From a virus: a DNA stretch of 64,000 nt. Positions within the stretch are counted from its first letter, which is position 1, and each line of letters starts with the position of its first letter. Below, in pieces: positions 1-57,728 of the stretch. The stretch spans positions 36,093 through 100,092 of the IMG/VR virus record IMGVR_UViG_3300030329_001736; one strand, given 5' to 3'. The translations under genes were made by a program, and so were the position numbers. The notes under the pieces were generated by a model. The model did not search any database and had not been told where the DNA came from. It worked only from the letters and a program-made list of their open reading frames with translations.

Positions 1-1961
1 CTCGTTGGGACCGTCTTAACAGTTTGCGAATTAACTTTATGCTGTCTGGCCCAAACACCCAGATAATAAACACCGTATCAAACTTTATGAACATGAACCT
101 GTTGCCTATGGAACAAGCAATGGGTGGAGCGGTGGCTGGCGACCGACAGGAAATCATGCGCGGCATAAGGCAACTAGGAGCCACCTATGGTTCTATGTGG
201 AACGCCATGAAAATGGCCGCAAGGGCACTCAAAGAAGACCAGACCATTCTTGATCAGTTAAACAAGGTGGAACAAGACGAGCTTCAGCAGGGAATATTTG
301 GGGGAGAGAAAGTCTCGTTTTCTAACATTGCTGAGTTCAAACGGACAGGAAAAAGTGTAAGAAACTGGGCGAACCTTACGACCACCCTGCCTTCACGGTT
401 GCTGTTGTTTTCCGATGAATTCTTTAAACAGGCGACCTACAGCGGAAAGCTACATGCTGATCTATGGGTAGCAGGGCAAAAGGAAATAGCAGATGGGAAG
501 CTTACAAAAGACAAGTTAACGGATTGGATAAACACCAAGGCAAAAGAAGCTTACGACCCAGAAACAGGTGCGGCAGTTGCAACAACAAAGGCAGGGGCGA
601 AACTAAGCCCGCACTCAAAAGCGGCATTGGATATAGCAAGGGAATCCACCTTTACCACAGAATTAGATGGATTTTTTGCAACGATACAAGCACTGGCTAT
701 CAAATATCCAGCCGCAAGGTTTGTCCTTCCGTTTGTCAGAACCCCAACTAACTTGCTTTTAGCCACTTGGCGACGCGCCCCTGGCGTTAACTTGGCGAGA
801 AAACAGGGGAAGATTCGACGCGATCTAAGAAGCAGCGACCCCTCAATTAGAGCGCAAGCCCGTGGAAAAATATTCACTGGCTGGGCAATAACAGGAGTTG
901 CTGGATTTCTTGCACACAGTGGAATCATTACAGGTTCTGGACCGAGCAACCCAAAAGACAAGAAAGAACTGATGGCTACTGGGTGGCGTCCTTATAGCAT
1001 CCGAAGGGAGAATCCTGATGGGACGTTCTCATACATTCCATACCAGAGATATGAGCCCTTATCTAATTTCCTAGGTATTGCCGCTGATTTATATGAATTA
1101 CAAAAAGAAGCCTTACTAGAAGGTAGGAAAGGGGAGGAAGACCGCGTTGAAGATATTGTATTAGGTCTTATTACTGCGATTAGTGAAAACACAATTAACA
1201 AAACGTACATGCGCGGCCTCAGTGATTTTATGGAAGCGTTGATTAGCCCTGAAAGGTCTTTTGAACGAGTTGCTGCTGGTGTTGTAAAAAGCTTCAGTCC
1301 AAACATTATCAACCAATTAAATAACGATCCGTATCTAAGAGAAACCAGAAGTATTCTTGATGGGCTTCGGTCTGCTTGGAATACAGAATTAGGCGGTATG
1401 GCAGCACCGCGAAAACGAAACGCTTTGGGAGAGCCCATCCTTAGACAGACTTCTAAAGCACACCCTTTTACAGCATCTGAGCGCGATCCTGATGATATTG
1501 TACTGAATGAACTTGCAGCTATCGCTCAGTACACAGGTAAAACCTTTGGTCTTCCGTCTGACAGAAGGATGGGGACAAACAAAGATTTCTCTCTGGTGCC
1601 GCTAGAAGATGGAATGTCTGTCTTTGAAACTTATCTGGATGATATACACACTTTAAAAATAGGGGGTAAGACGCTAAGGCAGCGTTTAGAGAGGTTAATC
1701 TCTAGTCCTTCTTATCAAAAACTCTCCCCAGGAAGTCGTGATTTTAAAGACGGCCCAAGAGTTGAGCGTCTACAGAGTTTGATCAATACTTACAAGAAAA
1801 CTGCCAGAAAGAAACTGTTTGCTAAAGGGCGATCTTCAACTGCGCCTGAAGGTTTACGGATGTTCTACCAAGAATCTAGAAAATTTCTAAAAGATGAAGC
1901 AGCGACAAAACGCGGGGGTCCACCGAAAGAGTTCAAAGATTTAATACTGAGGCGAAACTGA
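1..1961 (+). CDS. Large internal virion protein, C-terminal part (T7 gp16-position, autographivirus-like); 5'-truncated
   Basis: Frame is open from base 3, so the track start at 24 is not the real start. Motifs PFVRTPTNL, ITGSGPS, GWRPYSI and YQRYEPL resemble marine T7-like internal proteins; lies directly upstream of a gp17-type fibre. Confidence 0.7.
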   Translation, partial: RWDRLNSLRINFMLSGPNTQIINTVSNFMNMNLLPMEQAMGGAVAGDRQEIMRGIRQLGATYGSMWNAMKMAARALKEDQTILDQLNKVEQDELQQGIFGGEKVSFSNIAEFKRTGKSVRNWANLTTTLPSRLLLFSDEFFKQATYSGKLHADLWVAGQKEIADGKLTKDKLTDWINTKAKEAYDPETGAAVATTKAGAKLSPHSKAALDIARESTFTTELDGFFATIQALAIKYPAARFVLPFVRTPTNLLLATWRRAPGVNLARKQGKIRRDLRSSDPSIRAQARGKIFTGWAITGVAGFLAHSGIITGSGPSNPKDKKELMATGWRPYSIRRENPDGTFSYIPYQRYEPLSNFLGIAADLYELQKEALLEGRKGEEDRVEDIVLGLITAISENTINKTYMRGLSDFMEALISPERSFERVAAGVVKSFSPNIINQLNNDPYLRETRSILDGLRSAWNTELGGMAAPRKRNALGEPILRQTSKAHPFTASERDPDDIVLNELAAIAQYTGKTFGLPSDRRMGTNKDFSLVPLEDGMSVFETYLDDIHTLKIGGKTLRQRLERLISSPSYQKLSPGSRDFKDGPRVERLQSLINTYKKTARKKLFAKGRSSTAPEGLRMFYQESRKFLKDEAATKRGGPPKEFKDLILRRN

Positions 1962-1962
1962 C

Positions 1963-4900
1963 ATGGCTAATGCATCCCACATTATACAGGCAAGCAGTGT
2001 GGATGGGACAACGAATACATTCAATATTCCGTTCTCATACATCAGTGAAGATCATCTTGCATTTTATGTAGATAATGTTTTAACAACGGATTCTTCATCT
2101 CTCTACACCGCCACTGTACTTACAGGTGGGACCACGGTTCAGATTGTTAAGACTTCAGATTCTTCTAATCCTAACAATGTCACAATTAAACTTGAACGTA
2201 ACACTCCTATAAGCACAGCCAGTGTTGTCTTCTCAAATTCCTCTACACTTAAAGCGTCTGATCTAAACACCAGTAATAACCAGTGGCTTTACGCAGCCCA
2301 AGAAGCCGCTGACGATGCTGCTGAAGCCATCCGCCTAGACGCTGCCGGGGTATACGATGCCAATAGTACAAAAATAACAAATGTAACTGACCCCACAGCC
2401 GCCCAAGACGCTGCGACGAAAAACTATGTGGACACTGCTGGCGACTCTAAGGTCGCGCAGGCCGCCGCCAGTGCAACAAGTGCAGCTAATAGTGCTACAG
2501 CAGCGGGGCAGTACGCCGGAACCCAGAATGTTGATACCTTCAACGGAACTGGGTCACAAACTGCCTTTACTTTGTCTGCTTCCCCTGCAACAGAGAACAA
2601 CACTCTCGTTACGATTTCGGGAGTAGTGCAGCACAAAAGCTCGTACTCCCTTAGTGGAAACACGCTAACCTTTTCGTCACCACCAGCGGCAGGAACCGGG
2701 AATATTGAGGTCGTTCACTTATCGCTTTTGTCGATAGCGAATCTTGATGAAGACCTATCCTCTACATCGTCGGCACACGATTCGATCCCTTCGGCTAAAG
2801 CTGTAAAGAGCTATGTGGATACGCAGGTCGATACGGTCGATACGTTGGCTGAGGTGTTAGCGAACGGCAACGGAACCGGCGGCAACGACATTGCTGTTGG
2901 TGCGAACGACGACATAACTCTGGTTGATGGAGCAAACATTAAGTGGGGAACGGGTGGAGACGGTCTAGGAATCTACCACAATGGCTCGAACAGCTACATC
3001 ACCGAGATTGGTAATGGTACGGGCAACCTGTTTGTACTCGCCACGGACCTGACGCTCGGTGACAAGGGAAATCAACATCATTACGCGCATTTTGTCAGCG
3101 GCGGCGAAGCAAAGCTGTTTTACGACAATGGGTTGTCATTTGAGACGACCAGCGGCGGCGGTAAAGTTTATGGCGACTTACAGATCACTGGGGGCGACAT
3201 TGAGCTTGGCAGCAGCAACGATACGACCATCTCGCGGGCGTCCGCTGGCGTCGTAACCATCGAAGGGCAGACTGTTCGCACTGGCACTGTTGGAATCTCG
3301 GACGGCGGAACCGGCGCGACGACTGCGGCTGCGGCAGCGACCGCGCTGGGTGTTGGCGCTGGGTCCAATGTTACATTTCATGGGCTGACAACGACCGGTA
3401 ACGCAAGCATTGATGGCGCGGTCACGGTAAACAACTCCGGTGCAGATGCCGATTTCCGGGTCGAAACATCTGGCAATGCAAACATGCTGTTTGTCGATGG
3501 CGGCACCAATCGCGTCGGCATAGGCACAGGCTCGCCAAACCAGTTACTCGCTGTCAACGGATCGGATGGCGCGACGAACATGATGTTGCAATCCGGTGGC
3601 ACTTATCGGCTCGGATTCTACAACGACTCATCGCAACAGCGTCTCTCAACCTATGGCTCGCCTACTACGGCCCTGACCTTCGCGATCCAAGAAAGCGAAA
3701 AGATGCGGGTTTCGGCTAATGGGAAAATCGCAATCGGCGGCCAGACCGCTGACGGCCCGCTGCACGTTTTTAACGGGTCTGCGGGCAGTGTGACAGCCGC
3801 CACGGGCGCGGAAACAATTGTTGCTGAAGCTGGCGGACATGGGGGGGTGTCTATCCTGACTCCCCAGACCCACACCGGCTACCTCACGTTCGGGTCGCCC
3901 ACCGCATCTACTCGCGGTTTTGTCAGTTATGAACACAACAACGACGCTATGGCGATCCAAGTCGCTGGCGGCGAAGCCATGCGGATCAACTCGTCTCGCA
4001 ACGCGACGTTTGCCGGGAACGAAATCAAAGTTGGCGACAACAACGCTGCTGGCGGCAACTACGATTCCGTGTTGCACTTGCTCGGAGATTCGTCCAGCGG
4101 CTTTAAGTTAAGCACCAACAGCGGCAACAGCGCCTTCAATATTGAGCGCGAATATTACGGCTGGCAAGGCGGGCTGACGATGAAACGCGACACGGGAAAT
4201 ATCGGAATTGGCTGTTCCGACCCCGGTGCGGAGCTTGAAATTGCTGGGGATTATCAACCGCTTATCGTCAATAGCACGAACAGTAGCATCCCCAAGATTG
4301 TCCTTGAAGACAATGGCTCGGCGCGAGGATATTTAGGAGCCGGTTCGGGGCACCCGCTCGTCGTCAGTGCCAGTAACGGATCAAACAAATATTTCTTCAG
4401 CGATTTGAACGGACACAGCTACTTCCAGATTGCCGCCAGCAGCACAGCGGGTAGCGGCGCTGGGGGTGCCTACATCAAAGCGACAGGCAGTGCCGCTTCT
4501 GGACCGCCACAGATAGCTGGCATTGACTTGTCGATGACGGACGGAACCGATGGCAGTGAGAGCGGAATCATTGCTTTCCACACGACGAATAGTGGTACTT
4601 CCTCCGAGAAAGTTAGGATAACGTCATCGGGGCTAGTCGGTTTGGGAGTAGCGGCACCAACCGAGGAGCTACACATTAAAGCGTCGGCTCCCACGATCAG
4701 GCTGGAAGATTCCGACAACAATCTATCTGGCTACATCAATGGGGATAATGGAAATGTCCTCATCCAAAGTTACAACGCAAACCGAGATATTATTTTCGGC
4801 GAAAACGCTGCCGGTGGTGAGATCATGCGCGTCACTGGGCTGGGGTCCGTCGGGATTGGCACTTCGGCACCCGGCGCAGAACTTGAAATTGCTGGGGATT

Positions 4901-6090
4901 ATCAACCACTTATCGTTAATTCGACGAACAGCAGTGGTGCCAAAATTGTCTTTGAAGACAACGGTGTGACGAGAGGTTATATCGGCGGCGCGTCTAGCAT
5001 GCCAGTAACATTTTACAACTCTAGTGCCACATTGCTTGGCGGCTTCGACACTAACGGCAGATTTGGAATTGGTACTTCGACGCCAACATCTCCTCTAACT
5101 GCCCACGGATATACTAGTGGTGTTGGTGTTATCTACGGTAACGCTGGTGCAGCATCACAGCACTTAATAACACTAACAGACGGTGTTGCGACCAACTTTT
5201 CTATCGTCACTAGTGGTACAGTTCTTACTCTTGGGTCAGATGCTGGAAGCAATCAAACGGCCATAAAATCTTCGGGGGTCGAGGCAATACGGATCGATTC
5301 CTCGCAGCGGGTCGGGATTGGTACTTCGACGCCAGATAGCAATCATAAATTAGAAGTGTACAGCACAGGTACTACCGAAGTAGCAATCCGAAGCGGAAAC
5401 AGTTCTGAGGCAATCATTAATTTTGGAGATGTCGCTAGTCGTTTACGAGGTCGAATAGCGTATAACAACAGCAGTGAATACCTAGCTTTTTGGGCTAATG
5501 CTGGTGAAAAGATGCGAATTGATTCATCTGGTAACTTAATCGTAAAACCAGCTAGTTCAAGTCAGACTATCAGCGTTGAAGCGTCGGGCGGCGGCGCAAA
5601 AATTGAAATGCAAGCTGATGGTGGTACACTCACAACAGTAGGCAGCACGAACAATGTGCCGACTGCTATTCAAGCTAATAGCAGTGAAGCTGTGAGGGTT
5701 TTAACGGATGGAAAAGTTGGAATTGGCACAACCTCACCTTCAGCAAAACTTGAGGTAAACGGAACAGTATTGGCGTCTACTGACACTGATACAAGTAACA
5801 CTGGAAGTGTGACGCTAGACTTTTCTGCTAATCAAAACTTTGTCCTGACTCTCACAGGTAATGTTACACTAGCCAACCCATCCACAGAACAAGTTGGTCA
5901 GGCTGGCGTGATGGTCTTTATTCAAGACGGAACGGGGTCCAGAACCCTGAGTCTCGGATCGGACTACGAGACGGCTGAAGGGGCTGGCATTACGCTTAGC
6001 ACCGCTGCTAATGCGGTTGATATTGTTCCGTATTTTGTTAAGGCTTCTGGCTCGATTCAACTCGGCGCACCACAACTGGCGTTTAGTTAA
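1963..6090 (+). CDS. Tail fibre with T7 gp17-like N-terminal attachment domain (probably chimeric at ~4804)
   Basis: N-terminus DGTTNTFNIPFSYISEDHL...LERNTP...FSNSSTLKASDLN; repeated G(I/L)GTxxP modules; C-terminal QDGTGSRTL domain. Confidence 0.85.
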   Translation: MANASHIIQASSVDGTTNTFNIPFSYISEDHLAFYVDNVLTTDSSSLYTATVLTGGTTVQIVKTSDSSNPNNVTIKLERNTPISTASVVFSNSSTLKASDLNTSNNQWLYAAQEAADDAAEAIRLDAAGVYDANSTKITNVTDPTAAQDAATKNYVDTAGDSKVAQAAASATSAANSATAAGQYAGTQNVDTFNGTGSQTAFTLSASPATENNTLVTISGVVQHKSSYSLSGNTLTFSSPPAAGTGNIEVVHLSLLSIANLDEDLSSTSSAHDSIPSAKAVKSYVDTQVDTVDTLAEVLANGNGTGGNDIAVGANDDITLVDGANIKWGTGGDGLGIYHNGSNSYITEIGNGTGNLFVLATDLTLGDKGNQHHYAHFVSGGEAKLFYDNGLSFETTSGGGKVYGDLQITGGDIELGSSNDTTISRASAGVVTIEGQTVRTGTVGISDGGTGATTAAAAATALGVGAGSNVTFHGLTTTGNASIDGAVTVNNSGADADFRVETSGNANMLFVDGGTNRVGIGTGSPNQLLAVNGSDGATNMMLQSGGTYRLGFYNDSSQQRLSTYGSPTTALTFAIQESEKMRVSANGKIAIGGQTADGPLHVFNGSAGSVTAATGAETIVAEAGGHGGVSILTPQTHTGYLTFGSPTASTRGFVSYEHNNDAMAIQVAGGEAMRINSSRNATFAGNEIKVGDNNAAGGNYDSVLHLLGDSSSGFKLSTNSGNSAFNIEREYYGWQGGLTMKRDTGNIGIGCSDPGAELEIAGDYQPLIVNSTNSSIPKIVLEDNGSARGYLGAGSGHPLVVSASNGSNKYFFSDLNGHSYFQIAASSTAGSGAGGAYIKATGSAASGPPQIAGIDLSMTDGTDGSESGIIAFHTTNSGTSSEKVRITSSGLVGLGVAAPTEELHIKASAPTIRLEDSDNNLSGYINGDNGNVLIQSYNANRDIIFGENAAGGEIMRVTGLGSVGIGTSAPGAELEIAGDYQPLIVNSTNSSGAKIVFEDNGVTRGYIGGASSMPVTFYNSSATLLGGFDTNGRFGIGTSTPTSPLTAHGYTSGVGVIYGNAGAASQHLITLTDGVATNFSIVTSGTVLTLGSDAGSNQTAIKSSGVEAIRIDSSQRVGIGTSTPDSNHKLEVYSTGTTEVAIRSGNSSEAIINFGDVASRLRGRIAYNNSSEYLAFWANAGEKMRIDSSGNLIVKPASSSQTISVEASGGGAKIEMQADGGTLTTVGSTNNVPTAIQANSSEAVRVLTDGKVGIGTTSPSAKLEVNGTVLASTDTDTSNTGSVTLDFSANQNFVLTLTGNVTLANPSTEQVGQAGVMVFIQDGTGSRTLSLGSDYETAEGAGITLSTAANAVDIVPYFVKASGSIQLGAPQLAFS
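4804..4900 (+). repeat. Exact direct repeat, copy 1 (copy 2 at 63904-64000)
   Basis: aacgctgccggtggtgagatc...gctggggatt is identical over 97 nt up to the window edge; offset 59100, same reading frame. Confidence 0.97.
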
Positions 6091-7742
6091 TGACGATGTT
6101 TGGTTCACAATGGTTTGCTAATTCAGGCGGGTTTGATACAGGCTTGATTAGCAACTCGGTATGGTTAGATGAATCCGACTATCTGAGTCGCTCGACCAGT
6201 AGTTTTAGTAGCAATGAATTTATAATGGCATGCTGGTTTAGAATTATGGAACCGCTAGGTACTGGCGGCTACGCTATAGAGCCGCTAATGAGCATTGGAA
6301 ATAACTCTGCTTCGGGCGTTGGAAACGTGGCAATGAATTTTGAAGGCGGTATGGCTTATTTCTCATGTGATGGCTATGCCGTAAAATCTTCTGCGAACAT
6401 GATTAGAGACATTGGTTGGTATCATATACTTGCAAGTTATAAAATTAACGAATCAACGGCAAGCAACAAAGGTAAGTTTTTTCTTAATGGTGTAGAAATT
6501 ACTAGTTTTTCGGCAGACCAGCGTAGTTATTGGGGTACGTCTTTTAACAATACAAGTAAACAACTCGTTGGTGCTTCATTTGCGTGGACCGGAAAAACCT
6601 ATATTGCACAGCCGGTAATGCTTGATGGGCAATCAATTCAAGGCGGCGATGTTTCTATATCTGATTTTGTAGATACAGAAACTTTTGCGCCAAACGATGC
6701 TCAGACTATTCCTAAATCAGACGCAGATATAGCTGCGCTTGCGTCATCTGCTGGAGGAAATAGTTTTTGCTTAGACTTTTCTGATAGCTCTAATCTTGGA
6801 AACGATCTAAGCAGCAATAACAGTGATTTAACTACGACAAGTATGACAGCAGCGAATCAGTCTGCTAACACGCCCAGTAAAGTTTATCCAATTTGGAATC
6901 CGTTAGAACCGACGAACTCGACCATTACCTTGACTGAAGGTAATTTGCGAGCAGCGGGTTCGGGTGGTTCCGATGGCGGTGCAATTGGAACAATGCCGTT
7001 GCCGACGACCGGCACATCAGAATTTCAGATAAAAACAAATAATGGTCAAGGAAGAGTTGGCATCATTGCTCATGCTGGCGCTGTCGCTGTTGATGAAGTG
7101 TCGAACAATTGCGCTGCAGGCGCTGGATATAATTTTAATGCGGCATACCATTATGCTGAAAATGGAAGCATAAGACAAATACTCTCTTCTGGTAGTAGTG
7201 ATGCACAAACAGGTATTGGCTCATGGTCAACAAATGATGTGATTACAGTGCGATATAATGCCGATGACAACGAATTGAGTTTTCTAAAAAATAACAGTGC
7301 TGTGGGAAGTGCAGTTTCCACTGTTTCGGGACTAGTCTACTATCCAGTTGTCTGTCGTTGGAACAACTATGACATAACTGCATATTTTGATTCTTCTGAT
7401 TTTCCGCACACAATAGGTACGGGAAATAAAGAAGTTAATAGTGCTAATCTAACAACAGAAACATTTTCAAATCCAGCAACAGGTTCGTTTAAAGGTAACG
7501 CAAGTACGGCTGGTCCGCTTATCTTTTTGGGATTCAAACCGTCGCCAGACGATGCGCTTACTATTAACGGCAATAGCGTTACTTACGGCACAGACGTTAG
7601 ACTTACCTCCGATGGATTCAAAGTTATAAGCAGCAGTTCAAATTTTAACACAACCAGTGGAACAAACAGTTATTCAATTGTGACAGCAAACGCATTGCAA
7701 ATTAACGGAAAATTTCCACCAGCAATTGCTGAGACAAGCTAG
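6090..7742 (+). CDS. Tail-associated receptor-binding protein with concanavalin A/LamG-like and SPRY-like beta-sandwich domains
   Basis: RDIGWYHIL, FCLDFSDSSNLGNDLS and WNPLE..LTEGNLRA patterns; overlaps the fibre stop codon (TAATG). Confidence 0.65.
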   Translation: MTMFGSQWFANSGGFDTGLISNSVWLDESDYLSRSTSSFSSNEFIMACWFRIMEPLGTGGYAIEPLMSIGNNSASGVGNVAMNFEGGMAYFSCDGYAVKSSANMIRDIGWYHILASYKINESTASNKGKFFLNGVEITSFSADQRSYWGTSFNNTSKQLVGASFAWTGKTYIAQPVMLDGQSIQGGDVSISDFVDTETFAPNDAQTIPKSDADIAALASSAGGNSFCLDFSDSSNLGNDLSSNNSDLTTTSMTAANQSANTPSKVYPIWNPLEPTNSTITLTEGNLRAAGSGGSDGGAIGTMPLPTTGTSEFQIKTNNGQGRVGIIAHAGAVAVDEVSNNCAAGAGYNFNAAYHYAENGSIRQILSSGSSDAQTGIGSWSTNDVITVRYNADDNELSFLKNNSAVGSAVSTVSGLVYYPVVCRWNNYDITAYFDSSDFPHTIGTGNKEVNSANLTTETFSNPATGSFKGNASTAGPLIFLGFKPSPDDALTINGNSVTYGTDVRLTSDGFKVISSSSNFNTTSGTNSYSIVTANALQINGKFPPAIAETS

Positions 7743-7754
7743 GAGAATAAAATA

Positions 7755-8258
7755 ATGTGGAAATATAACGGGAAAACAATTAATGAGCGGAAGTCTTGGG
7801 TTGATGATAATGGTATTCAGCATCCTTCTAATTGGCATATCTGGTCGCCATCAGATAAAGCTGCCGCCGGTCTGGTAGAGGTTGTCGAAGACACACCACC
7901 AGATAGCCGCTTGTACAATTGGACTATGGATACAAATGGAAAGATAGATAAGACTCCTAGAAATTTAGAGGATGTTAAAGTAAATCTAAAACGAGAAGTT
8001 AAGGACCATCAAGGTGCTTTACTTACTCAAACGGATTGGGCAGTCGTTCGCAAAGCTGACAACGGTACAGCTATTCCTTCCGATATCCAAACTTGGAGAG
8101 ATGCTATTCGCACTAAAGCAACCGAGATGGAAAATGCGATTGATGGTGCAGAGAATACAGATGCTGTAGCTGCGCTGTTTGTGTCTTACACAACTAACGA
8201 AGACGGCAGTGTAACGCAGTCGGGCATCCTTTACGATTGGCCTGAATTAGAAAGTTAA
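7755..8258 (+). CDS. Tail fibre assembly chaperone-like protein
   Basis: LLTQTDWAVVR...WRDAIR...DWP motifs; AGGAG RBS; tail context. Confidence 0.6.
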   Translation: MWKYNGKTINERKSWVDDNGIQHPSNWHIWSPSDKAAAGLVEVVEDTPPDSRLYNWTMDTNGKIDKTPRNLEDVKVNLKREVKDHQGALLTQTDWAVVRKADNGTAIPSDIQTWRDAIRTKATEMENAIDGAENTDAVAALFVSYTTNEDGSVTQSGILYDWPELES

Positions 8259-8310
8259 ATGTTTACAAACTGGTACAAAGATTTAAATAATACAAGAAAG
8301 GAATTAAATT

Positions 8311-8640
8311 ATGGCTGCTACAATTGAATGGCTAGTAGAAGCATTAGATTGTTATCCTACAAAAGATAGCAAGACTGATGTTGTTATGATGGTTCATTGG
8401 CGTTGCAATGGGTCTGAAGAGAATGATAGTAAAACCTATCACTCAACTTCTTATAGTACGGTTGGCGTAACCTATGAAGATGGTGATGCTTTTACTCCCT
8501 TCGCAGATTTAACTAAGGATCAAGTTCTTGGTTGGGTCTGGGAAAGTGTAGATAAGAATGAAACTGAAGCTAGTATACAAAAAAGTATTGACAATCAAAT
8601 TAATCCTCCTATAATTCAACCTGACCTACCGTGGTCTTAA
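8311..8640 (+). CDS. Conserved small tail-associated protein
   Basis: VHWRC, FTPFADLTKDQVLGWV and terminal LPW pattern; RBS present. Confidence 0.55.
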   Translation: MAATIEWLVEALDCYPTKDSKTDVVMMVHWRCNGSEENDSKTYHSTSYSTVGVTYEDGDAFTPFADLTKDQVLGWVWESVDKNETEASIQKSIDNQINPPIIQPDLPWS

Positions 8641-8663
8641 TAAAATAAAAGGAGAAATAAATA

Positions 8664-8924
8664 ATGACTCAAGAAGAAAACAATAATAATATCATTAATA
8701 TTAATGGGACTGATTATTCTCAAGATGATCTTAGTAAAGAGCAGCAATACATGATTGCTCAAGTCAAGGACTTGCAAATAAAAGCAGCCCAGACCAAGTT
8801 TCAGCTTGATCAAATCCAAGTATCACTAGATCATTTTACTAATAAGGTAATTGAAAGTATTGAAGATAAGGGACAAGATTCTGACCCTTCTGAGATTATT
8901 CAACGGAAACAATTGGTGAATTAA
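8664..8924 (+). CDS. Small coiled-coil protein (tail-module hypothetical)
   Basis: AAGGAG RBS; ININGTDYSQDDLSKEQQ followed by a coiled coil. Confidence 0.55.
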   Translation: MTQEENNNNIININGTDYSQDDLSKEQQYMIAQVKDLQIKAAQTKFQLDQIQVSLDHFTNKVIESIEDKGQDSDPSEIIQRKQLVN

Positions 8925-8933
8925 TAGTTAGCT

Positions 8934-9617
8934 ATGGCTTTTGGCAGTATTATATTATTAGGAGCAGGTTCTGCAGGATCAACAGGGTTAGACCTTGTAA
9001 TCTCTTCTAATACAACAGATTATAATGTTTTGACTGCAGCAACCGCTGCTGGTTACGATAATTCATTAGGAGATAATGTTACTATTACAGTAACTATCAA
9101 CTCTGGTGTTAATGTAACTGCAACTGGAGGAGGCGGAACTGCATTTACTACTGGTGCTTTGAATGCCAATACTACACTTAGTATTATTAATAACGGTAAT
9201 ATTACTGGGAGTAATGGTGGCACAGGCAGTAACGGAGGTAATGGTGGTTCTGGTGGTAAAGGTGTTTTCTTTAATACTGTTACTGGTGGATCAGCTACAC
9301 ACAGTTTAGAAAATAACGGCGTTATCGCTGGAGGTGGAGGTGGCGGTGGTAGTGGTGGACATAAGCGAACATGCTATTCAGACGGCGACGGAGGCCACGA
9401 ATGTAATGATCCAGTTGCAATAGGTGCTGCTGGCACTGTTGGAGCTTTAGGACAAAGTGGCACAGCCGGTGCTAATCCTCCTGCTCAAGGTCTTTGTGAT
9501 TGTAGTCTAAGTCCTGCCCGTGGTCTTGGCGGTGCTGGTGGTTATTCTATAGATAAGAATGGTCGTACAGTTACTCAAACTGGTTCAGGAACCTATGTTG
9601 GAACACAAAAACCATGA
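8934..9617 (+). CDS. Glycine-rich adhesin, T-even gp38-like receptor-recognition protein
   Basis: VTINSGVNV, IINNGNITGSNGGTG, NNGVIAGGGGGGG and GGAGGYSI polyglycine pattern with Cys-containing loops. Confidence 0.65.
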   Translation: MAFGSIILLGAGSAGSTGLDLVISSNTTDYNVLTAATAAGYDNSLGDNVTITVTINSGVNVTATGGGGTAFTTGALNANTTLSIINNGNITGSNGGTGSNGGNGGSGGKGVFFNTVTGGSATHSLENNGVIAGGGGGGGSGGHKRTCYSDGDGGHECNDPVAIGAAGTVGALGQSGTAGANPPAQGLCDCSLSPARGLGGAGGYSIDKNGRTVTQTGSGTYVGTQKP

Positions 9618-10453
9618 GAGTATTAGTACCGTATAGTGGTCTAGGAACCAATAGTACTTATGGACTGTATCGCTGGTTAACAGAAACAGACTATGAAGTA
9701 GTAGCTATGTTTTTAGATATATATTATTCTTCAGATGAATATACTGCTTTTGAAAGAGAACATTTTCACAGAGGAGTTAAATGGTTTAAAGATAATATAA
9801 GAGATTTTGAAACTATAGAAAGAAAATGTGAACAAGTATATTCTGATACTTATGAGCCAGTCAGAGAAAATTTTACTTTGAATGTGAAAACCGGTTCTTA
9901 TAAAAATATGAGAAAGGTTTATATAGATACTGCTAAAGAATATAAAGTTGATTTTTTAAGTAGTGGTAAGTCAGGAGAAGACACAAATGTTTCTTTGAAC
10001 AAATCTGTTAGTATTTCAAAAGGATCAGATTATGATTATATTCATCCTTCTTGGTCTTTAACAGAACCAGTTACTTTAGAGAATAGAGATCAAGCAATAA
10101 AAGAAATGTCTGCTAAATGGAGTCAACGAGAAAAGTTACCACAAGAACTAAGAAATATTATTACTGATTGCACTTGTAAAGGTGATGGAGGAATATGTTA
10201 TTTTTGCACAGACTTACTTTTAAATGAAGTTCGTCCAGAAACAGGACAAGAGCTTGATGATGTTATACTAGAAAAATTATGTGCAGGAAAATTTAGACAC
10301 TTAGCTGATCCAAAAACTTTTAGACTAGACCAGCGAACAGTTACATATTTTAAGTTATTAGGTTATAACGAAGAACAATGGCTTGATCCAGTTACAAGAA
10401 AAGAATACAAGGAAAAAGTTAAAGATATGTATGCAAAAGCAGGAAACATATGA
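9614..10453 (+). CDS. QueC-like / PP-loop (adenine nucleotide alpha-hydrolase) family protein, degenerate
   Basis: N-terminal VLVPYSGLGTNSTY (canonical SGGxDS) and a C-terminal CTC...ICYFC cluster. Confidence 0.45.
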   Translation: MRVLVPYSGLGTNSTYGLYRWLTETDYEVVAMFLDIYYSSDEYTAFEREHFHRGVKWFKDNIRDFETIERKCEQVYSDTYEPVRENFTLNVKTGSYKNMRKVYIDTAKEYKVDFLSSGKSGEDTNVSLNKSVSISKGSDYDYIHPSWSLTEPVTLENRDQAIKEMSAKWSQREKLPQELRNIITDCTCKGDGGICYFCTDLLLNEVRPETGQELDDVILEKLCAGKFRHLADPKTFRLDQRTVTYFKLLGYNEEQWLDPVTRKEYKEKVKDMYAKAGNI

Positions 10454-10848
10454 TAAAGAAAATATTATTCTTAGTAACTTTTTTAAGTTCTATTTTATTT
10501 TTTTCTACGAATGTTAATGCTGAAGATAAAAAAGATAAGGAAATATATTGGCAGATTGGAGATGCAGTACTAACCATTATGGTTTGTAGAACTGAGGAAG
10601 ATATTTTAGAAATAGGTTATGCTGATAGTCAATCTGCATTAAAACTAAATCAGTTAATTCAAATTAAAATTATGCAAAATAGTTGTCTAGTCTTTAATCC
10701 TCCTTTACAATTAGAAGTATCTAAGATTGTAGGAGACTACAAAGATTATAACGGAAATAATACAACAATGGTTGGTGTTTCTCCTATACAGGAACCAGAT
10801 AATATCTTAGGTTATTTAATAATATTAGGTAAACCTTTAACAATTTAG
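10450..10848 (+). CDS. Hypothetical exported protein
   Basis: Sec-type signal peptide MIKKILFLVTFLSSILFFSTNVNA. Confidence 0.6.
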   Translation: MIKKILFLVTFLSSILFFSTNVNAEDKKDKEIYWQIGDAVLTIMVCRTEEDILEIGYADSQSALKLNQLIQIKIMQNSCLVFNPPLQLEVSKIVGDYKDYNGNNTTMVGVSPIQEPDNILGYLIILGKPLTI

Positions 10849-10861
10849 TAAGGGATGAAAA

Positions 10862-11788
10862 ATGGCGAGTACTTATACTTCTAGAATTAGATTAGAAAAG
10901 CAGGGAGATGGAGAGAATCCTAATACTTGGGGTTTACGTCTTAATCAGAATGTTATTGATTTGCTTGATGAAGCTGTAGCTGCATACGTTACTGTTTCTG
11001 TATCTAATGCTAATGTAACTCTATCTGCTAATAATGGAACTACTGATCAGTCTAGGTCACCTTTTATTGAACTACAAGGAGAGGTAACTTCTAATCTTAA
11101 TGTTATTGTTCCTAGTGTAGATAAGGGTTATACAATTAATGATAAAACAACTAGAAATCCAGCAGGAAGCACAGTTACACTAAAGACTGCTACAGGAACA
11201 GGAACTGAAGTTAAGGTAGGAAGAATTGCTCAGTTTGTATGTGATAGTGTTTCTGTTCATCCAGTAGAAGGATACACAAGTGTAAGTGATGTATATGCAG
11301 GAACTAATAATACCTTTACTGGTACAAATACTTTTAGTGGTTTAGCTAGTTTTACTAGTGCTACATCGTTTAACACTAGTGTTTCAGTAAAAGATTTAAG
11401 AATTACTGAAGGGCGCATAGAAGATGTTAGTGTTTCTGTTGCTTCTATAGTACACGCAAGTGTTACCAGAGGTATTATGCCTTTTACTTCTCTTACTGAT
11501 GGTGCAACTATTACAATAGACTTTAATACAGGAAATAACTTTTGTGTGACATTAGGAGGTAACAGAACTTTAGCTAACCAAACTAATGGTACAGTAGGAC
11601 AAACAGGGTATATTTACGTTAAACAAGATGGAACAGGAGGTAGAACTTTAACCTTTGGTAACTGGTGGAAATTTAGCGGAGGAGAGACGCCTGAACTAAC
11701 AAGTGTTGCAAATTCTGTTGATATGCTTGTTTATAATATACGAGAGACAGAAAAAGTAGATACTGTTTTTATAGCTGATTTTAAATAG
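10862..11788 (+). CDS. Short tail fibre / tail appendage protein
   Basis: N-terminus MASTYTSRIRLEKQGDGENPNTWG; C-terminal QDGTGGRTL domain homologous to the end of the 1963-6090 fibre. Confidence 0.7.
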   Translation: MASTYTSRIRLEKQGDGENPNTWGLRLNQNVIDLLDEAVAAYVTVSVSNANVTLSANNGTTDQSRSPFIELQGEVTSNLNVIVPSVDKGYTINDKTTRNPAGSTVTLKTATGTGTEVKVGRIAQFVCDSVSVHPVEGYTSVSDVYAGTNNTFTGTNTFSGLASFTSATSFNTSVSVKDLRITEGRIEDVSVSVASIVHASVTRGIMPFTSLTDGATITIDFNTGNNFCVTLGGNRTLANQTNGTVGQTGYIYVKQDGTGGRTLTFGNWWKFSGGETPELTSVANSVDMLVYNIRETEKVDTVFIADFK

Positions 11789-11809
11789 GAATACTAGTAA
11801 GGATAACAC

Positions 11810-13693
11810 ATGTCTTCTACTACTTCCAGATTATCTAAGTTAAATCTTAAACCGGGATTTCACAGAGAATCAACTCAATACTCTGAAGAGGGGCGTTGGT
11901 TTGATGGAGATCGTGTGCGTTTCAGAGAAGGAAAGCCAGAAAATTTAAGAGGCTATAATAAATTTACATTAGATGATAACAGAACACTTGAAGGTATTGG
12001 CAGAGATTTAATAACTTGGTCACGAAATAATTCACAAAAACTTCTTTCTGTAGGAACAGAGAAGAAACTTTATATTGTAGATGGTTCTTTCCCTTATGAT
12101 GTAACACCTATTGTTACTGTAGTTTCTATAGGTAATAGTGGAACACAAGGTAATCTTAGTACTGTATCTGGTCAAAATAGAATTTATGTAAGTATTACAA
12201 ATAATAATGTAAGTGTAGGAGATTTTGTAGAATTTACTTCTGCTTCTACTAATGGATTTAGCCAAGGAACAGACTTTGCTGTTACTGCGTTTGGTGGTCC
12301 TGTTTATGAAGTTGTTAATGTTTCAGGTGTAAATAATTTTAGTGTATCTGTTAACTATTCTTCTAATGCAACACAGACAGGACCGGGACAAGCTACTGCA
12401 CATTTTCTTTTACCTACTGGATCAAATGATAGTATCCAAGGAACTGGATATGGTGCAGGAAACTATCTTGCAGGAACAAATGATCCTTCTGCAAGAGCAT
12501 GGAATGAACCTGCAGCTACGTCTAATATTGTTTTTGCTGCTTCTCAGTGGTCACTAGATACATTTGGTGAAGATTTGTTAGGTGTTAGAAGAGGAAATAA
12601 ATTATGTCATTGGGATGCAGATGCCAGTGTAACGCCAGTAAGAGCTAATATTATTTCTGGAAGTCCTGATCAAATAAATAGTATTGTTGTATCTCCTAAT
12701 GATAGGCATGTTATTGCATTAGGTGCAAATGAATTTGCTACTGGTACTTTTAATCCTATGCTTATTAGATGGGCAGATCAATTAAATTTTAATAACTGGA
12801 CTCCTGCTATTACTAATACAGCAGGAGAACTGGTTGTAGTAGACGGTACAGAAATCATTGCTGGTATTAGAACCAGAAGCTCTATTCTTATTTGGACAGA
12901 TAATGCTTTGTATGGTTTACAATTTGTTGGTCCTCCGTTTACATTTAGTATTCAACAGTTAGGGTCTAATTGTGGACTTATAGGACAACATGGAGCAATA
13001 GCTGTAGACTCTGCCTCTTTCTGGATGAGCAACGATAACTTCTATGTTTTTGATGGAACTGTAAGAAAATTAGATTGTACTGTTAGAAGACATCTATATG
13101 ATAATTTTAATATGACGCAGAAAGATAAAGTTTTTTGTGCTACTAATTCAGAGTTCCACGAAATTATTTGGTTGTATCCTTCAGAAAGTTCTTCTGAACC
13201 TGACTCATATATTATCTATAACTATGAGGAAAATACTTGGGTATATGGGTCTAGTTTCTATACTACTTTTTCTGATGATCATGTATTTGATAATACCATT
13301 ACAACAGGAAGAGTTAGTGCTTCTGATGATACTCGTATATGGAACAATGAACCTGAGAATATTTTTACTGGAGATGGTAAAGCACTAACTTCTTTCTTAG
13401 AATCTGCTGATTTTGATTTGCAAGATGGTGCAGATATAATGTTTGTTAATAGAGTTATCCCTGATCTTACTTTTGGATCAGGTACTAATTTAACTTTTAC
13501 TATTAATTTAAAAGATTATCCTGCTGATTCAACTACGCAAAAAGGACCGTATACTTTAAATTCAGGAATAAAAAAAGTAGATTTAAGAGCTAGAGGAAGA
13601 CAAGCTAATGTTCGTGTCTCTACTTCTGATTTAGGTGCAGAGTGGAGATGGGGTAATGTTAGGGTAGCCTTACAGCCAGATGGTAAACGATAA
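11810..13693 (+). CDS. Tail nozzle / DNA stabilisation protein (P22 gp10- or T7 gp12-like)
   Basis: 627 aa, beta-rich; motifs WFDGDRVRF, IRWADQ, LIWTDNALY, FWMS; upstream of internal virion genes. Confidence 0.7.
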   Translation: MSSTTSRLSKLNLKPGFHRESTQYSEEGRWFDGDRVRFREGKPENLRGYNKFTLDDNRTLEGIGRDLITWSRNNSQKLLSVGTEKKLYIVDGSFPYDVTPIVTVVSIGNSGTQGNLSTVSGQNRIYVSITNNNVSVGDFVEFTSASTNGFSQGTDFAVTAFGGPVYEVVNVSGVNNFSVSVNYSSNATQTGPGQATAHFLLPTGSNDSIQGTGYGAGNYLAGTNDPSARAWNEPAATSNIVFAASQWSLDTFGEDLLGVRRGNKLCHWDADASVTPVRANIISGSPDQINSIVVSPNDRHVIALGANEFATGTFNPMLIRWADQLNFNNWTPAITNTAGELVVVDGTEIIAGIRTRSSILIWTDNALYGLQFVGPPFTFSIQQLGSNCGLIGQHGAIAVDSASFWMSNDNFYVFDGTVRKLDCTVRRHLYDNFNMTQKDKVFCATNSEFHEIIWLYPSESSSEPDSYIIYNYEENTWVYGSSFYTTFSDDHVFDNTITTGRVSASDDTRIWNNEPENIFTGDGKALTSFLESADFDLQDGADIMFVNRVIPDLTFGSGTNLTFTINLKDYPADSTTQKGPYTLNSGIKKVDLRARGRQANVRVSTSDLGAEWRWGNVRVALQPDGKR

Positions 13694-13965
13694 TGATTTA
13701 TCCTGAACTACCTACATATGGACGAAAAATAGAAGATGAAGAATTAAAGAAAATGTACAGGGATATTACTTCTTGGGCTTCTCAATTAAAAAATCTATTA
13801 GAGATCAGAGATATTCAAGTTGATAGTACTCCTTCTACTACAATTTTTTCTGTAGTTACTGTAACATCTATAGGTAGACCTGCAAGTGGAGATGTAGCTT
13901 TCTCTATAGGCGAAGGAAAATTTAAAGGATATGTTAGCGGAACAGGATGGGTAGACTTTAACTGA
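13693..13965 (+). CDS. Small virion/tail protein
   Basis: TAATG coupling to the nozzle gene; ends FKGYVSGTGWVDF. Confidence 0.55.
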   Translation: MIYPELPTYGRKIEDEELKKMYRDITSWASQLKNLLEIRDIQVDSTPSTTIFSVVTVTSIGRPASGDVAFSIGEGKFKGYVSGTGWVDFN

Positions 13966-14174
13966 TGGCAATGACACAAAGACAAAAGATTTTGGATATA
14001 TTATACAACAGTACTTATATCCAGAATATGAATAAAGGTTATATAGAAAGCACAGAGGATAAGGGTATGGCGTATCCTAACAATTCGGTGTATAATAACC
14101 CCAACACTTTACATGCAGATATGACTAAATCTCAGTCTAACTATATGAATCCCAAACAAGCAAAGGTAATTTAG
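13965..14174 (+). CDS. Hypothetical protein
   Basis: TGATG coupling; fills the gap between flanking genes. Confidence 0.4.
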   Translation: MAMTQRQKILDILYNSTYIQNMNKGYIESTEDKGMAYPNNSVYNNPNTLHADMTKSQSNYMNPKQAKVI

Positions 14175-17100: not shown

Positions 17101-17770
17101 TGGTATGATGCAAGCTGCACCAAGTATGGCTAACAAACCAGATGATCATATTGTTTACAAGAAGGGAAGCAAAGCATACAAACAAAATCCTAATTGGGTT
17201 GGACCTGACGGAGAAATCAGGGTAGAAAGCATAAAAAAATACTATGATCCTAACTATAATGTGAAACCTGAAGAAGAATCAGATAGTAGTTCAGGTCTAT
17301 TAGAAATGTTGCAAAACTTATTTACAAGTCAAGACGACAATACTATTACTATTAGTAAAGGAGATACTTTATTTGATATATCAAAAGAGTATGGTATACC
17401 TTTGCCAGAGATACTACAAAAGAACCCTAGTATTACAGACCCTAATCTTATTAGGGAAGGACAGGTTATTAACAAATATCAAGGTGGCTCCGTCAACCCT
17501 TATTTTGAAGGACAAGTTATAGGTAAAGGAGATGGTCAGTCTGATCAAATTCTCTTTGAGGTAGAAGGAAAGAATCCTGATATGGCTTTGCTAAGTAGAG
17601 ATGAGTACGTTCTTCCTGCAGATGCAGTAGCTATGCTAGGTAATGGTTCTTCTAATGCAGGTGCAAAAGAGCTTGATCAGTTCGTAAAAAATTTAAGACA
17701 GCAATCTTTCGGAACACAACAACAGCAGAAAAGATTAAATCCCCAGAAAGGATTGTCAGCATTAGTATAG
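14177..17770 (+). CDS. Multidomain internal virion (ejection) protein: Pro-rich repeats, GDT-type domain, hydrophobic Gly/Ala region, lytic transglycosylase-like domain, LysM, conserved C-terminal domain
   Basis: ETESS...KATGLFQFIPKTA (SLT-like, ~16890-17250); ISKGDTLFDISKEYGIPLPEILQKNPSITDPNLIREGQ (LysM, ~17345-17470); C-terminal GDGQSDQI...LSRDEYVLPADAV. Confidence 0.75.
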   Translation: MAYMVNRDAPYSGLATLMNMRDNNPNTQLAYVPTRDVEMRYDTIYNPSTGIPQAVGVSSFNEGGAIGFAPPVPEAEYMDKLGELQKELLSTLPRPARPNFNAPSPLARTPMPMFDSSYTPPQGGRGAGKGTSMPPMPPMPPMPPQGGRGAGKGPAGQTGTGPVITGLPDGLVVDRFPPSMPNPIHPDMVTAQIEPKLPTPSMPTPATPSMPTTPSMPTTPLPDTALTELNDLKNLIDSRHPVTTQPATPTMPTPSMPSYPIPTLHTPSMPSYPMPTLPNQPQPQPNKPVYDQYGYVQSGYEGGYRPPTNNNNTNNLTGLTGIGGGLAGIMGHRAAGGSVASKADEVASYGRYGDTTLVHMTPREVSGLASLGQLTINPDTGLPEAFSLGSIMPIVANVALGVATGGMSVPMQMAVMGGANLFMGLAQGQDFGDALLGAALSAGSTGIMRGLGSGLFSGAASGGADAAAAGSLAGGADAALASNAVPTFAEGALALPTATQIEAGILPPGFGGVTADTYLADAISTHGGELGGVGQAMSPVSPPKSPSFLSNVTDFIKDNPVKTGLLGLGLGSAFLGGEPEQLDNEPTIAPRKPLEFTGHEAKGPFTEQQLLDLALKGETFDEDGERIDYDLFTPGRGEGGQWYVSKNEGGLVGIPQTKQRSNVTNYMFDKKQGAVSPFNIFEVGKGLGSMGKKNNSTLMQLATGGQPRSNVADMINPMSRPVEFPRMISPSVFSYDNLLKRAAEKEEVEGFESPDAYQKRHEEILEKLLKDMKNISTILPEEKEPVVAAPEPLIEEPDDSTFADGDPDQGMGPPSGVGVDAAAAAAMGMADDEADVGAAAAAAADAADAAAAEADGVDEASSGDEWAKGGLIGLAKGGKLNYYDEAFDSLYKLGVKFPELESMLAGETESSLPLEQRLRRVNPKSKATGLFQFIPKTAKDLGTTTSKIKNMSAKEQADLYAKYLKKYKWKPGIPLGMMQAAPSMANKPDDHIVYKKGSKAYKQNPNWVGPDGEIRVESIKKYYDPNYNVKPEEESDSSSGLLEMLQNLFTSQDDNTITISKGDTLFDISKEYGIPLPEILQKNPSITDPNLIREGQVINKYQGGSVNPYFEGQVIGKGDGQSDQILFEVEGKNPDMALLSRDEYVLPADAVAMLGNGSSNAGAKELDQFVKNLRQQSFGTQQQQKRLNPQKGLSALV
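14534..15010 (+). repeat. Intragenic short tandem and direct repeats encoding Pro/Met/Thr-rich linkers
   Basis: (cctcctatg)n, duplicated cctcctcaaggaggtcgtggagcaggtaa, repeated cctagtatgcct. Confidence 0.85.
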
Positions 17771-17771
17771 T

Positions 17772-18203: not shown

Positions 18204-18205
18204 CT

Positions 18206-20203: not shown

Positions 20204-20211
20204 TAGTTGTA

Positions 20212-27878: not shown

Positions 27879-27879
27879 T

Positions 27880-40703: not shown

Positions 40704-40780
40704 TGGCGCTCTCGGTAGGACTCGAACCTACAACCTATAGATTAGAAGTCTATTGCTCTATCCGGTTGAGCTACGAGAGC
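40704..40780 (-). tRNA. tRNA-Arg(UCU) with encoded CCA
   Basis: GCTCTCG acceptor stem, anticodon arm ATAGA-CTTCTAA-TCTAT, T arm GTAGG-TTCGAGT-CCTAC, GCCA end. Confidence 0.95.
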
Positions 40781-53821: not shown

Positions 53822-53826
53822 TAAAA

Positions 53827-54024: not shown

Positions 54025-54031
54025 TAATAAT

Positions 54032-54451: not shown

Positions 54452-54454
54452 TAT

Positions 54455-57713: not shown

Positions 57714-57728
57714 GTCTTAACCTGATGT

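Follow-up and report, generated by a model that had tools for sequence, protein, structure and literature searches.

A 100-kb marine viral record is very probably an assembly chimera of two podovirus genomes fused within their tail-fibre genes

The IMG/VR record IMGVR_UViG_3300030329_001736 is a 100,092-bp contig, and its final 64 kb (64,000 nucleotides, here called the window) raise the question of whether one phage genome or two are present. The contig ends at window position 64000, and its last 97 nt are identical (97/97) to an internal stretch that lies in a tail-fibre open reading frame (ORF). Both copies of this repeat begin on a codon boundary, (4804-1963) and (63904-61429) each being divisible by 3, and thus the exact in-frame repeat reported originally from the sequence is confirmed. 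Upstream of the repeat, positions 4731-4803 and 63831-63903 share only ~73% identity. The 97 nt are a lower bound for the repeat length because the contig stops at window 64000. Both CheckV and IMG/VR list the record as linear and 100% complete, and thus do not flag a chimera. We use the name phage A for the sequence from contig position 1 to window ~4822, and phage B for window 4804-63903.

Positions 4804-4900, plus strand: first copy of the repeat (exact match), where the phage B circle begins in the contig.
Positions 63904-64000, plus strand: second copy of the repeat (exact match), the last 97 nt of the contig and the overlap that closes the phage B circle.

Two complete phage genomes, both circularly permuted, have very probably been fused within their tail-fibre genes during assembly of the record, because it carries two gene sets and a step in composition, and because each half is closed by independent contigs. 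Hallmark genes for TerL, portal, major capsid protein (MCP), DNA polymerase (DNAP), primase-helicase and ribonucleotide reductase (RNR) occur in duplicate. This conclusion is inferred from contigs rather than seen in reads or an assembly graph.

The upstream 36 kb and window 1-4822 together encode the T7-like gene set of phage A: TerL, integrase, single-subunit RNA polymerase (RNAP), SSB, primase-helicase, DNAP, exonuclease, RNR, portal, scaffold, MCP, tubular A and B, internal virion proteins and a gp17-type fibre. The structural genes follow the T7 order (portal, scaffold, MCP, tubular A and B, internal virion proteins, fibre), and the integrase lies upstream of RNAP. The polymerase is of the single-subunit type (phrog_414, E 4.7e-205) and is 41% identical over 97% of its length to those of roseophages CRP-804, CRP-118 and CRP-403. 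Phage A resembles these roseophages and the HTVC019P-type pelagiphages in size (~41 kb, within the 40-42 kb of T7-like roseophages), in the integrase upstream of RNAP and in gene order, but differs from the three roseophages in its low identity and its long, repeat-rich fibre (1326 aa, intact in the Tara Oceans contig L192). No tRNA or tRNA fragment that might hint at a host was found near the integrase, and no prophage relatives of the polymerase were found in 185,579 species genomes. The gene pair at 1-4803 is of autographivirus type, as had been proposed: a gp16-like protein whose ORF starts upstream of the window (phrog_6651, E 5.6e-47 for the window part and 3.3e-54 for a longer piece), and then a fibre N-terminus carrying PF03906.

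Positions 3-1961, plus strand: C-terminal 652 of the 1302 aa of the gp16-like internal virion protein of phage A (phrog_6651).
Positions 1963-4822, plus strand: genuine phage A part of the fibre, a gp17-type N-terminal anchor and then shaft units (PF03906; identity to L192).
Positions 4804-4822, plus strand: the 19-nt stretch of the A-to-B switch, common to L192, the chimeric contig and the end of the B fibre.

In the annotated ORF at 1963-6090 (1375 aa), PF03906, the T7 tail-fibre N-terminal domain, covers residues 1-160 (E 1e-25). L192 is identical to window 4027-4822 (796/796), has its first mismatch at 4823, continues for 179 nt that are not in the 100-kb contig and then agrees with contig 1-2803 at every position; its reading frame stays open throughout. 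Because A and B already differ upstream of 4804 and L192 departs at 4823, the A-to-B switch lies inside 4804-4822. The 1375-aa ORF is an artefactual fusion of the N-terminal part of A to the distal fibre of B, and the distal fibre of A itself is the 5′-open ORF with which the 100-kb contig begins (contig 1-942). With the L192 bridge, phage A closes at 41,093 bp, a closure supported independently by Tara contigs L192 and L193. Phage A is a ~41.1-kb marine T7-like (Autographivirales-type) phage with an integrase, and the idea that 1-4803 derives from a phage other than that of the remainder is borne out by its full T7-like set, different GC3 and the separate circles in independent contigs. A close relative of the N-terminal part of the A fibre was not found in IMG/VR, where the lone match (L185) is a different mosaic phage.

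Window 4804-63903 forms a 59,100-bp circle that carries a second full gene set: TerL, portal, MCP, an SU10 adaptor, ejection proteins, a family A DNAP, primase-helicase, RNR, thymidylate synthase and a Cas4-like exonuclease. The original prediction gave this remainder its own adaptor and ejection proteins; the adaptor is of SU10 type (PF24175), and TerL, portal and MCP can be added. The relative G001 (24.9 kb, 98.9% nucleotide identity to phage B) runs from the B structural genes through a fibre into window 8294-14000, to which its positions 18105-23817 match at 93%. A second relative, G003, is a complete circular sequence of 58,929 bp with a 141-nt terminal overlap; colinearity extends around the entire B circle, and no A structural genes were found in it. 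This colinear closure in both relatives, with the second gene set, substantiates 4804-63903 as a complete 59.1-kb genome.

Positions 60472-61146: SU10-type adaptor of phage B (PF24175).
Positions 61429-63903, plus strand: proximal 825 codons of the phage B fibre, native and AT-rich to ~63288 and then an A-like segment.
Positions 4804-6090, plus strand: distal 428 aa of the phage B fibre (in-frame closure; tip context; homologous units in G001).
Positions 5080-5228, plus strand: distal segment of the B fibre that is near-identical to the real fibre of A (146/149 against L192).
Positions 5614-6087, plus strand: C-terminal tip domain of the B fibre, a predicted beta-sandwich (AlphaFold model).
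Positions 6090-8258, plus strand: variable cassette downstream of the B fibre, a 550-aa ORF and a 167-aa ORF (profile matches; context at related loci).
Positions 8294-14000, plus strand: phage B backbone, again syntenic with G001 beyond the fibre (match to G001:18105-23817).
Positions 8311-8640: DUF7936 gene, the first of the resumed backbone (PF25590, E 6e-26).

The portal of phage B is 36-42% identical over 73-87% of its length to those of HTVC023P, HTVC027P, CRP-901/902 and DSL-LC04. Judged by such sequence comparisons, phage B appears to be an HTVC023P/CRP-901-type podovirus, as a distant relation at supergroup level only. Its comparison group comprises the HTVC023P-type pelagiphages, the Roseobacter phages CRP-901/902 and DSL-LC04 (PMC9599517, PMC10149686). 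Phage B is like the HTVC023P group in being a podovirus with a family A DNAP, primase-helicase and RNR, and its 59.1 kb fits the 52-62 kb of HTVC023P/CRP-901-type genomes; set against the group it is only distant kin, with a GC content of 38%.

Joining 61429-64000 to 4901-6090 yields 1254 codons and thus a 1253-aa protein, exactly the length first proposed, and the real fibre of phage B is 61429-63903 plus 4804-6090. PF03906 is absent from this fibre, which up to 62631 is 97.6% identical to G001 at the nucleotide level. The G001 fibre holds units homologous to the distal B fibre, but lacks units 4872-5307, and nothing in G001 corresponds to window 5535-8293. The C-terminal tip, which we presume to be the receptor-binding end, was modelled with a mean pLDDT of 78 (>90 for residues ~60-158). 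A fold search matched it only weakly to spike and tailspike domains of phages (best E 1.2e-4, TM 0.43), which does not allow a specific receptor-binding fold to be named.

Of 69 related IMG/VR loci, 65 contain the tip (27 sequences in alignment A3). Neighbouring genes of B type (adaptor, MCP, structural genes) occur in 36 of the 69, and T7-type tubular proteins, gp16 or fibre N-terminus beside the tip in none (0/69). Matches to the tip in bacterial metagenome-assembled genomes are confined to two short contigs (Maricaulis, Thermodesulfobacteriota), which we rejected as host evidence because they are probably mis-binned phage DNA. In the downstream cassette, the 550-aa ORF has a sub-threshold SPRY-like match and the 167-aa ORF resembles tail-fibre assembly proteins, with homologues after the tip in many B-type loci. 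G001 lacks the cassette and has a 154-aa ORF in its place.

Composition separates the A part from the B part in GC (~0.47-0.50 versus ~0.38), GC3 (0.47±0.09 versus 0.26±0.11) and tetranucleotide log-ratio (+0.11 versus -0.10). GC3 was used in place of raw GC to take out the amino-acid effect, as richness in Gly, Ala, Ser and Thr partly accounts for the high GC of the distal fibre. Within the B fibre, GC3 is 0.03-0.25 up to ~63288 and 0.45-0.62 thereafter; this jump at ~63300 coincides with the start of homology to A at the GIG unit 63289 (3514 in A). Tetranucleotide composition is A-like in 4804-6300 and intermediate in 6300-8100, and GC3 beyond ~5090 is merely intermediate.

A join between the two genomes is possible because both distal shafts are strings of similar ~70-80-aa units, each with a G-I-G-T motif at its centre. 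The phages had been thought to be joined through an identical fibre module, and of this claim the 97/97 repeat stands; identity between A and B at the join itself shrinks to 19 nt in the independent A contig. For this reason the 97-nt repeat is best read as the circular overlap of phage B rather than as proven A/B identity, and 97 nt is probably the k of the assembler. A 42-mer of the repeat gave no match in an exact-match scan of IMG/VR and metagenome contigs, among which the copies of the record itself may have been left out. Nineteen nucleotides are too short for a junction in usual de Bruijn assemblers, which points either to a variant of A with B-type sequence from 4804 or to unusual assembler behaviour. 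A clean figure-eight graph with a common node at 4804-5214 was dropped, because no exact overlap links the beginning of the contig to this node and L192 departs at 4823; such a traversal would predict a k-mer overlap between the 5′ end of the contig and the fibre region, and none was found.

We lean slightly towards the first of these options, in which a natural recombinant, A′, would carry a fibre that matches the B sequence exactly over 97 nt or more beginning at 4804, perhaps reaching ~5140-5168, and the assembler would have taken the wrong exit. This would refine the chimera reading rather than compete with it, as the contig would still be chimeric and the 97-nt A/B identity would then be real. 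De Bruijn junctions require common k-mers, and an overlap of 97 nt with a junction at 4804 is the expectation for a k=97 graph if A and B are identical from 4804. Compared with L192, the window seems to have had a cassette cleanly swapped between perfect flanks (4027-4822 and 5080-5168). Strains are also seen to vary, unit number differing among them (G001 without units 4872-5307) and L193 differing from L192 at three sites. Against such a variant, the sole independent assembly of the A strain, identical over 796 and 2803 flanking nt, lacks the B-type unit, a search of IMG/VR and the metagenome collection turned up no other contig containing the shared sequence, and the 5′ end of the contig does not overlap the putative shared node. 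Should the variant exist, a recombinant fibre was segregating in the sampled population.

Whichever way the join arose, the two fibres have DNA in common. Over window 5080-5228, L192 matches at 146 of 149 positions, in exact runs of 89 (5080-5168), 33 and 15 nt, and beyond 5228 identity is ~75%. A unit in a third, B-type phage is 88% identical in nucleotides to the distal fibre piece of A, and distal parts of the A and B fibres share 47-73% amino-acid identity or more. The diverged homologous blocks noted earlier were recovered, including by BLAST, at 4657-4717 and 63754-63814 (77%), 3563-3593 and 63338-63368 (87%), and 3603-3653 and 63381-63431 (88%). The N-termini are unrelated, as had been claimed, but only over the first ~280 aa, as further shaft repeats upstream are common to both fibres (35-47% amino-acid identity). 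These data support the earlier proposal that A and B exchanged distal fibre DNA, which appears from the sequences to be ordinary tail-fibre mosaicism.

That the likeness reflects only a conserved structural repeat motif, retained by ancestry or constraint with no recent exchange, is very unlikely. The common stretches do hold G-I-G-T units, of which each fibre has many, and similar units are widespread in IMG/VR. Conservation alone, however, is at odds with synonymous sites that are all identical in the 89-nt run (146/149 overall) while adjoining units stand at 73-88%, with abrupt changes of identity at segment borders and with the leap of B fibre GC3 from ~0.1 to ~0.55 where the homologous part begins. 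Exchange would have proceeded by homologous recombination at conserved G-I-G-T units during co-infection, swapping the distal receptor-binding parts while the N-terminal tail anchor stayed with each phage; an A-like, higher-GC donor may have contributed the DNA to B. The broader idea that G-I-G-T units are universal recombination joints, at which a temperate T7-like phage and a lytic HTVC023P-type podovirus swapped fibre segments very recently and came to share stretches of near-100% nucleotide identity, is speculative, and we lean somewhat against it.

Could the distal fibre and cassette (4804-8293) instead belong to phage A, with the true switch near 8294? The A-like and then intermediate tetranucleotides of 4804-8100 and the missing counterpart of 5535-8293 in G001 would fit. 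This is nevertheless highly improbable: the real A fibre departs at 4823 and goes on into contig 1-942, the tip and 167-aa ORF adjoin B-type genes and never T7-type tubular, gp16 or fibre N-terminal genes, and the end of the B fibre reaches 97 nt into 4804-4900. Assignment of 4804-8100 to A from its raised GC and tetranucleotide score was accordingly rejected by the gene-context survey and the Tara bridge. A single real ~100-kb phage with two tail fibres, in which the 97-nt repeat would have been duplicated internally or belong to a terminal repeat, has the completeness rating and the several fibres of some large phages in its favour, but is scarcely credible given that every essential gene is doubled, GC3 steps sharply from 0.47 to 0.26, independent contigs close each half on itself and the intact A fibre in L192 contradicts the fused 1375-aa ORF.

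Like known de Bruijn chimeric viral contigs, the record holds two complete genomes joined in shared or near-identical sequence, its terminal overlap points to an internal site, its composition steps and its parts close alone elsewhere. It differs from them in that identity at the join is just 19 nt in the independent phage A assembly, the cause being a recombinant variant or an assembler error.

Distal fibre modules are reportedly exchanged among the fibres of P2, Mu, P1, lambda and T-even phages, as Haggard-Ljungquist et al. are said to have described in 1992. As in known fibre mosaicism, the anchors of A and B are lineage-specific (a T7 gp17 domain and a different N-terminus) and their distal parts homologous, with identity that shifts abruptly and patches that are near-identical. 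Unlike the classic mosaics, A and B come from two families of marine podoviruses and are uncultured, exchange was apparently at ~70-80-aa G-I-G-T units whose number varies between strains, and a fibre-assembly chaperone is not shown to move with the shared segment. Cross-family module transfer through co-infection has been proposed for the HTVC023P-type group, for metabolic or secretion modules (PMC9599517); neither 'tail fiber' nor 'tail fibre' occurs in the main text of that paper.

A record rated 100% complete at 100 kb thus very probably represents two genomes of 41.1 and 59.1 kb, and its annotated 1375-aa fibre is a non-existent fusion, which makes it misleading for taxonomy, genome-size statistics, host prediction and fibre engineering. 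Shared fibre units are spots where viral metagenome assemblies fuse or break. The locus also provides a well-documented case of ocean podovirus families with common fibre DNA, the longest exact run being 89 nt; it agrees with known tail-fibre mosaicism and the proposed cross-family transfers of pelagiphages, and leaves that picture unchanged. If G-I-G-T units do act as recombination joints, co-infection of one host would be implied, and near-identical fibre patches could reveal that uncultured marine phages from separate families infect the same host.

The 100,092-bp contig, whose last 64,000 bases (36093–100092) make up the window, is two genomes in one record, because terminases, portals, capsid proteins and replisomes are all duplicated and no phage needs two. 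Phage A, a T7-like phage with all of its genes on the plus strand in the annotation of the whole contig, runs from contig position 1 to around window position 4822, and phage B, which resembles HTVC023P and CRP-901, occupies window 4804–63903.

Principal genes of the two phages (contig positions refer to the whole record).
A, contig 1–942, plus: fibre-like ORF, open at its 5′ end
A, contig 4037–5845, plus: TerL, followed by a methyltransferase
A, contig 9586–10716, plus: integrase
A, contig 11314–13836, plus: single-subunit RNA polymerase (RNAP; phrog_414, E = 4.7e-205)
A, after RNAP, plus, in order: SSB, primase-helicase, DNAP, exonuclease, RNR
A, then, plus: portal, scaffold, MCP, tubular proteins A and B, internal virion proteins, 1302-aa gp16-like protein
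A, last in order, plus: fibre, first 160 aa matching PF03906 (T7 fibre N-terminal domain, E = 1e-25)
B, window 14177–24018: ejection proteins
B, window 47784–49355: TerL
B, window 51296–53821: portal
B, window 56769–57713: MCP
B, window 60472–61146: SU10-type adaptor
B, window 61429 onward: fibre
B, minus strand: DNAP, primase-helicase, RNR, thymidylate synthase, Cas4-like exonuclease

GC content is about 0.47–0.50 over the first 42 kb of the contig versus about 0.38 after it, and gene GC3 is 0.47 ± 0.09 in A versus 0.26 ± 0.11 in B. Together with two complete gene sets and separate closure of each genome by independent contigs, these values uphold the original prediction that two different phages are joined in one sequence. 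Phage B also carries one tRNA-Arg(TCT) (window 40704–40780, minus strand), and phage A has no tRNA. An Rfam scan of contig 5800–11400 at E ≤ 1 gave no hits.

The ORF open at the contig start aligns at about 75% with the fibre from window position 5215 onward, which suggests that it encodes the distal part of the A fibre, and Tara Oceans contigs of phage A settle this assignment. One of them (L192; CEUZ01075685.1, 3846 bp), recovered by metagenome search, is identical to window 4027–4822 at 796/796 positions, continues with 179 nt that do not occur in the contig, and is then identical to contig 1–2803, with its sole six mismatches at 2804–2868. With the reading frame open throughout this bridge, phage A closes as a circle of 41,093 bp whose fibre is 1326 aa long, and the window's 1375-aa ORF (1963–6090) is an artefactual fusion. 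Window 1–4803, previously assigned to another phage, thus belongs to T7-like A, which L192 closes separately by leaving the window sequence at 4823. The other contig (L193; TARA_R100000808_G_scaffold9479_1) is 100% identical to contig 1–3370 and extends 91 nt upstream. The closest relatives of the A RNAP, at 41% identity, are those of the T7-like roseophages CRP-804, CRP-118 and CRP-403, which have genomes of 40–42 kb.

Phage B had been proposed to be complete at 4804–63903, a predicted circle of 59,100 bp, and two IMG/VR relatives run across its closure. The first (G001; IMGVR_UViG_3300037847_001391, 24.9 kb) shares nucleotide identity of 98.9% with window 51902–58823 and 97.6% with 60471–62631, beyond which it carries a 911-aa fibre, a 154-aa ORF and then directly sequence 93% identical to window 8294–14000. 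The second (G003; IMGVR_UViG_3300033183_000056, 58,929 bp) is circular, given its 141-nt terminal overlap, and is colinear with the whole B circle, closure point included. In the A part it matches only genes with counterparts in B, namely replication genes and a DUF7936 gene. The two large ones among these, primase-helicase and DNAP, are nearer to those of B (54–56%) than to those of A (38%). The B portal is 36–42% identical to those of Pelagibacter phages HTVC023P and HTVC027P, Roseobacter phages CRP-901 and CRP-902, and phage DSL-LC04, all with genomes of 52–62 kb.

Phage B further encodes a 785-aa protein (window 25575–27932, minus strand) with an unusual fusion of Methyltransf_24 and MptE-like (PF01973) domains, which is conserved in the phage B group, as indicated by 58% identity in G003. 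Low-complexity coding repeats occur in virion proteins at window 59247–59414 (Lys/Pro/Ala-rich, AAACCT-type, 12–18-nt periods), where G001 and a further relative (L008) diverge or carry indels, and at 14700–15010 (Pro/Thr/Ser/Met-rich).

Self-comparison of the window recovers the exact in-frame repeat on which the original prediction was built. Positions 4804–4900 and 63904–64000 agree at 97/97 nt, which cannot be due to chance, and each copy starts on a codon boundary (ORFs 1963–6090 and 61429–63999). Immediately upstream, identity falls to about 73% (4731–4803 versus 63831–63903), and diverged homologous blocks lie where they had been described, at 4657–4717 versus 63754–63814 (77%) and 3563–3653 versus 63338–63431 (87–88%). 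Joining the B fibre ORF across the repeat gives 1254 codons, and thus the expected 1253 aa. The length of 97 nt is set by the end of the contig, which stops exactly at window 64000.

Ownership of the sequence beyond the repeat is settled by gene context. Among 69 IMG/VR loci with relatives of the distal 428 aa, 36 have B-type structural genes, such as the adaptor, beside them. Tubular proteins of the T7 type, gp16 and a gp17-type N-terminus occur in none, and four show no more than a faint match (21–24%) to the A capsid protein. Homologues of the 167-aa ORF (7755–8258) commonly follow the same tip. The distal fibre and the cassette at 4901–8293 are therefore phage B's, and ownership by A, raised by the A-like tetranucleotide composition of 4804–6300, is very unlikely. 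For the C-terminal tip (5614–6087), modelling predicts a beta-sandwich with high confidence (pLDDT above 90 at residues ~60–158). Its fold resembles phage spike and tailspike domains only weakly, and a receptor-binding role is likely.

Directly after the B fibre, with an ATG overlapping the fibre stop, lies a 550-aa ORF (6090–7742) that is missing from the 98.9% identical G001. Its product matches a virion structural phrog and, narrowly missing the cut-off, resembles SPRY (PF00622, E = 1.1e-5); it may be a second, strain-specific receptor-binding protein. A 109-aa DUF7936 gene (PF25590) lies shortly downstream of the fibre in both phages (window 8311–8640; contig 1355–1684), and G003 also has one. 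The A and B proteins are 30% identical, and the gene may have a conserved accessory role linked to the fibre.

The repeat had also been read as identity between A and B. The exact match stands, but independently assembled A shares only 19 nt with B at the join (4804–4822), because L192 departs at 4823 and the two phages differ upstream of 4804. Both 97-nt copies are probably the same stretch of B, forming a circle-closing overlap of the kind found in G003, and the length would fit an assembler final k of 97. Since 19 nt is too short for a de Bruijn junction, the join needs either a variant of A or an unusual assembler error. We lean slightly towards a variant in the sample whose sequence is B-type from position 4804 onward. 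Compared with L192, such a variant would have had one cassette cleanly replaced between flanks that match perfectly (4027–4822 and 5080–5168), although those 19 nt are all that L192 itself has in common with B there. Assembler error is the remaining option. Chimeric viral contigs as such are a familiar assembly artefact.

Three lines of evidence independent of the join support the proposed exchange of distal fibre DNA. First, L192 and the B distal fibre are identical at 146/149 positions of window 5080–5228, in exact runs of 89, 33 and 15 nt, with identity near 75% beyond. Second, GC3 of the B fibre jumps from 0.03–0.25 up to ~63288 to 0.45–0.62 from ~63300 to ~5090. The jump falls on a G-I-G unit, at 63289 in B and 3514 in A, which is also the start of homology to the A fibre, and suggests from composition that this segment was imported from a higher-GC, A-like donor. 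Third, a 51.7-kb phage (IMGVR_UViG_3300030329_001756, CEUI01049624.1 and TARA_R100000808_G_scaffold1279_6) combines a B-type DUF7936 region with a unit 88% identical in nucleotides to the A distal piece, and the G001 fibre is a mosaic of units that also occur in the window distal fibre and the A distal piece (81–83% aa). This third phage and one phage A scaffold apparently derive from a single Tara sample, so that at least three co-occurring phages share the pool of fibre modules.

The A and B fibres each consist of a series of ~70–80-aa units centred on a G-I-G-T motif, and strains differ in how many units they have. A shaft repeat further upstream is common to both fibres (35–47% aa), which leaves the first ~280 aa as the sole unrelated part. 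Each phage would retain its own N-terminal anchor, fitting its own tail, and would swap distal shaft and tip via homologous recombination at conserved units, most plausibly during co-infection. For HTVC023P-type pelagiphages, one study has proposed that modules move between families through co-infection; its main text does not discuss fibres (PMC9599517). A common host of A and B, as originally suggested, may be involved; searches for host clues (a tRNA near the A integrase, the A RNAP against 185,579 species genomes, and the fibre tip against MAG contigs) found none. Mosaic fibres in unrelated phages were already described for P2, Mu, P1 and lambda in the early 1990s, and the exchange between A and B is of this known kind. 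What the record shows is largely an assembly artefact, on top of fibre mosaicism that is ordinary though nicely documented.
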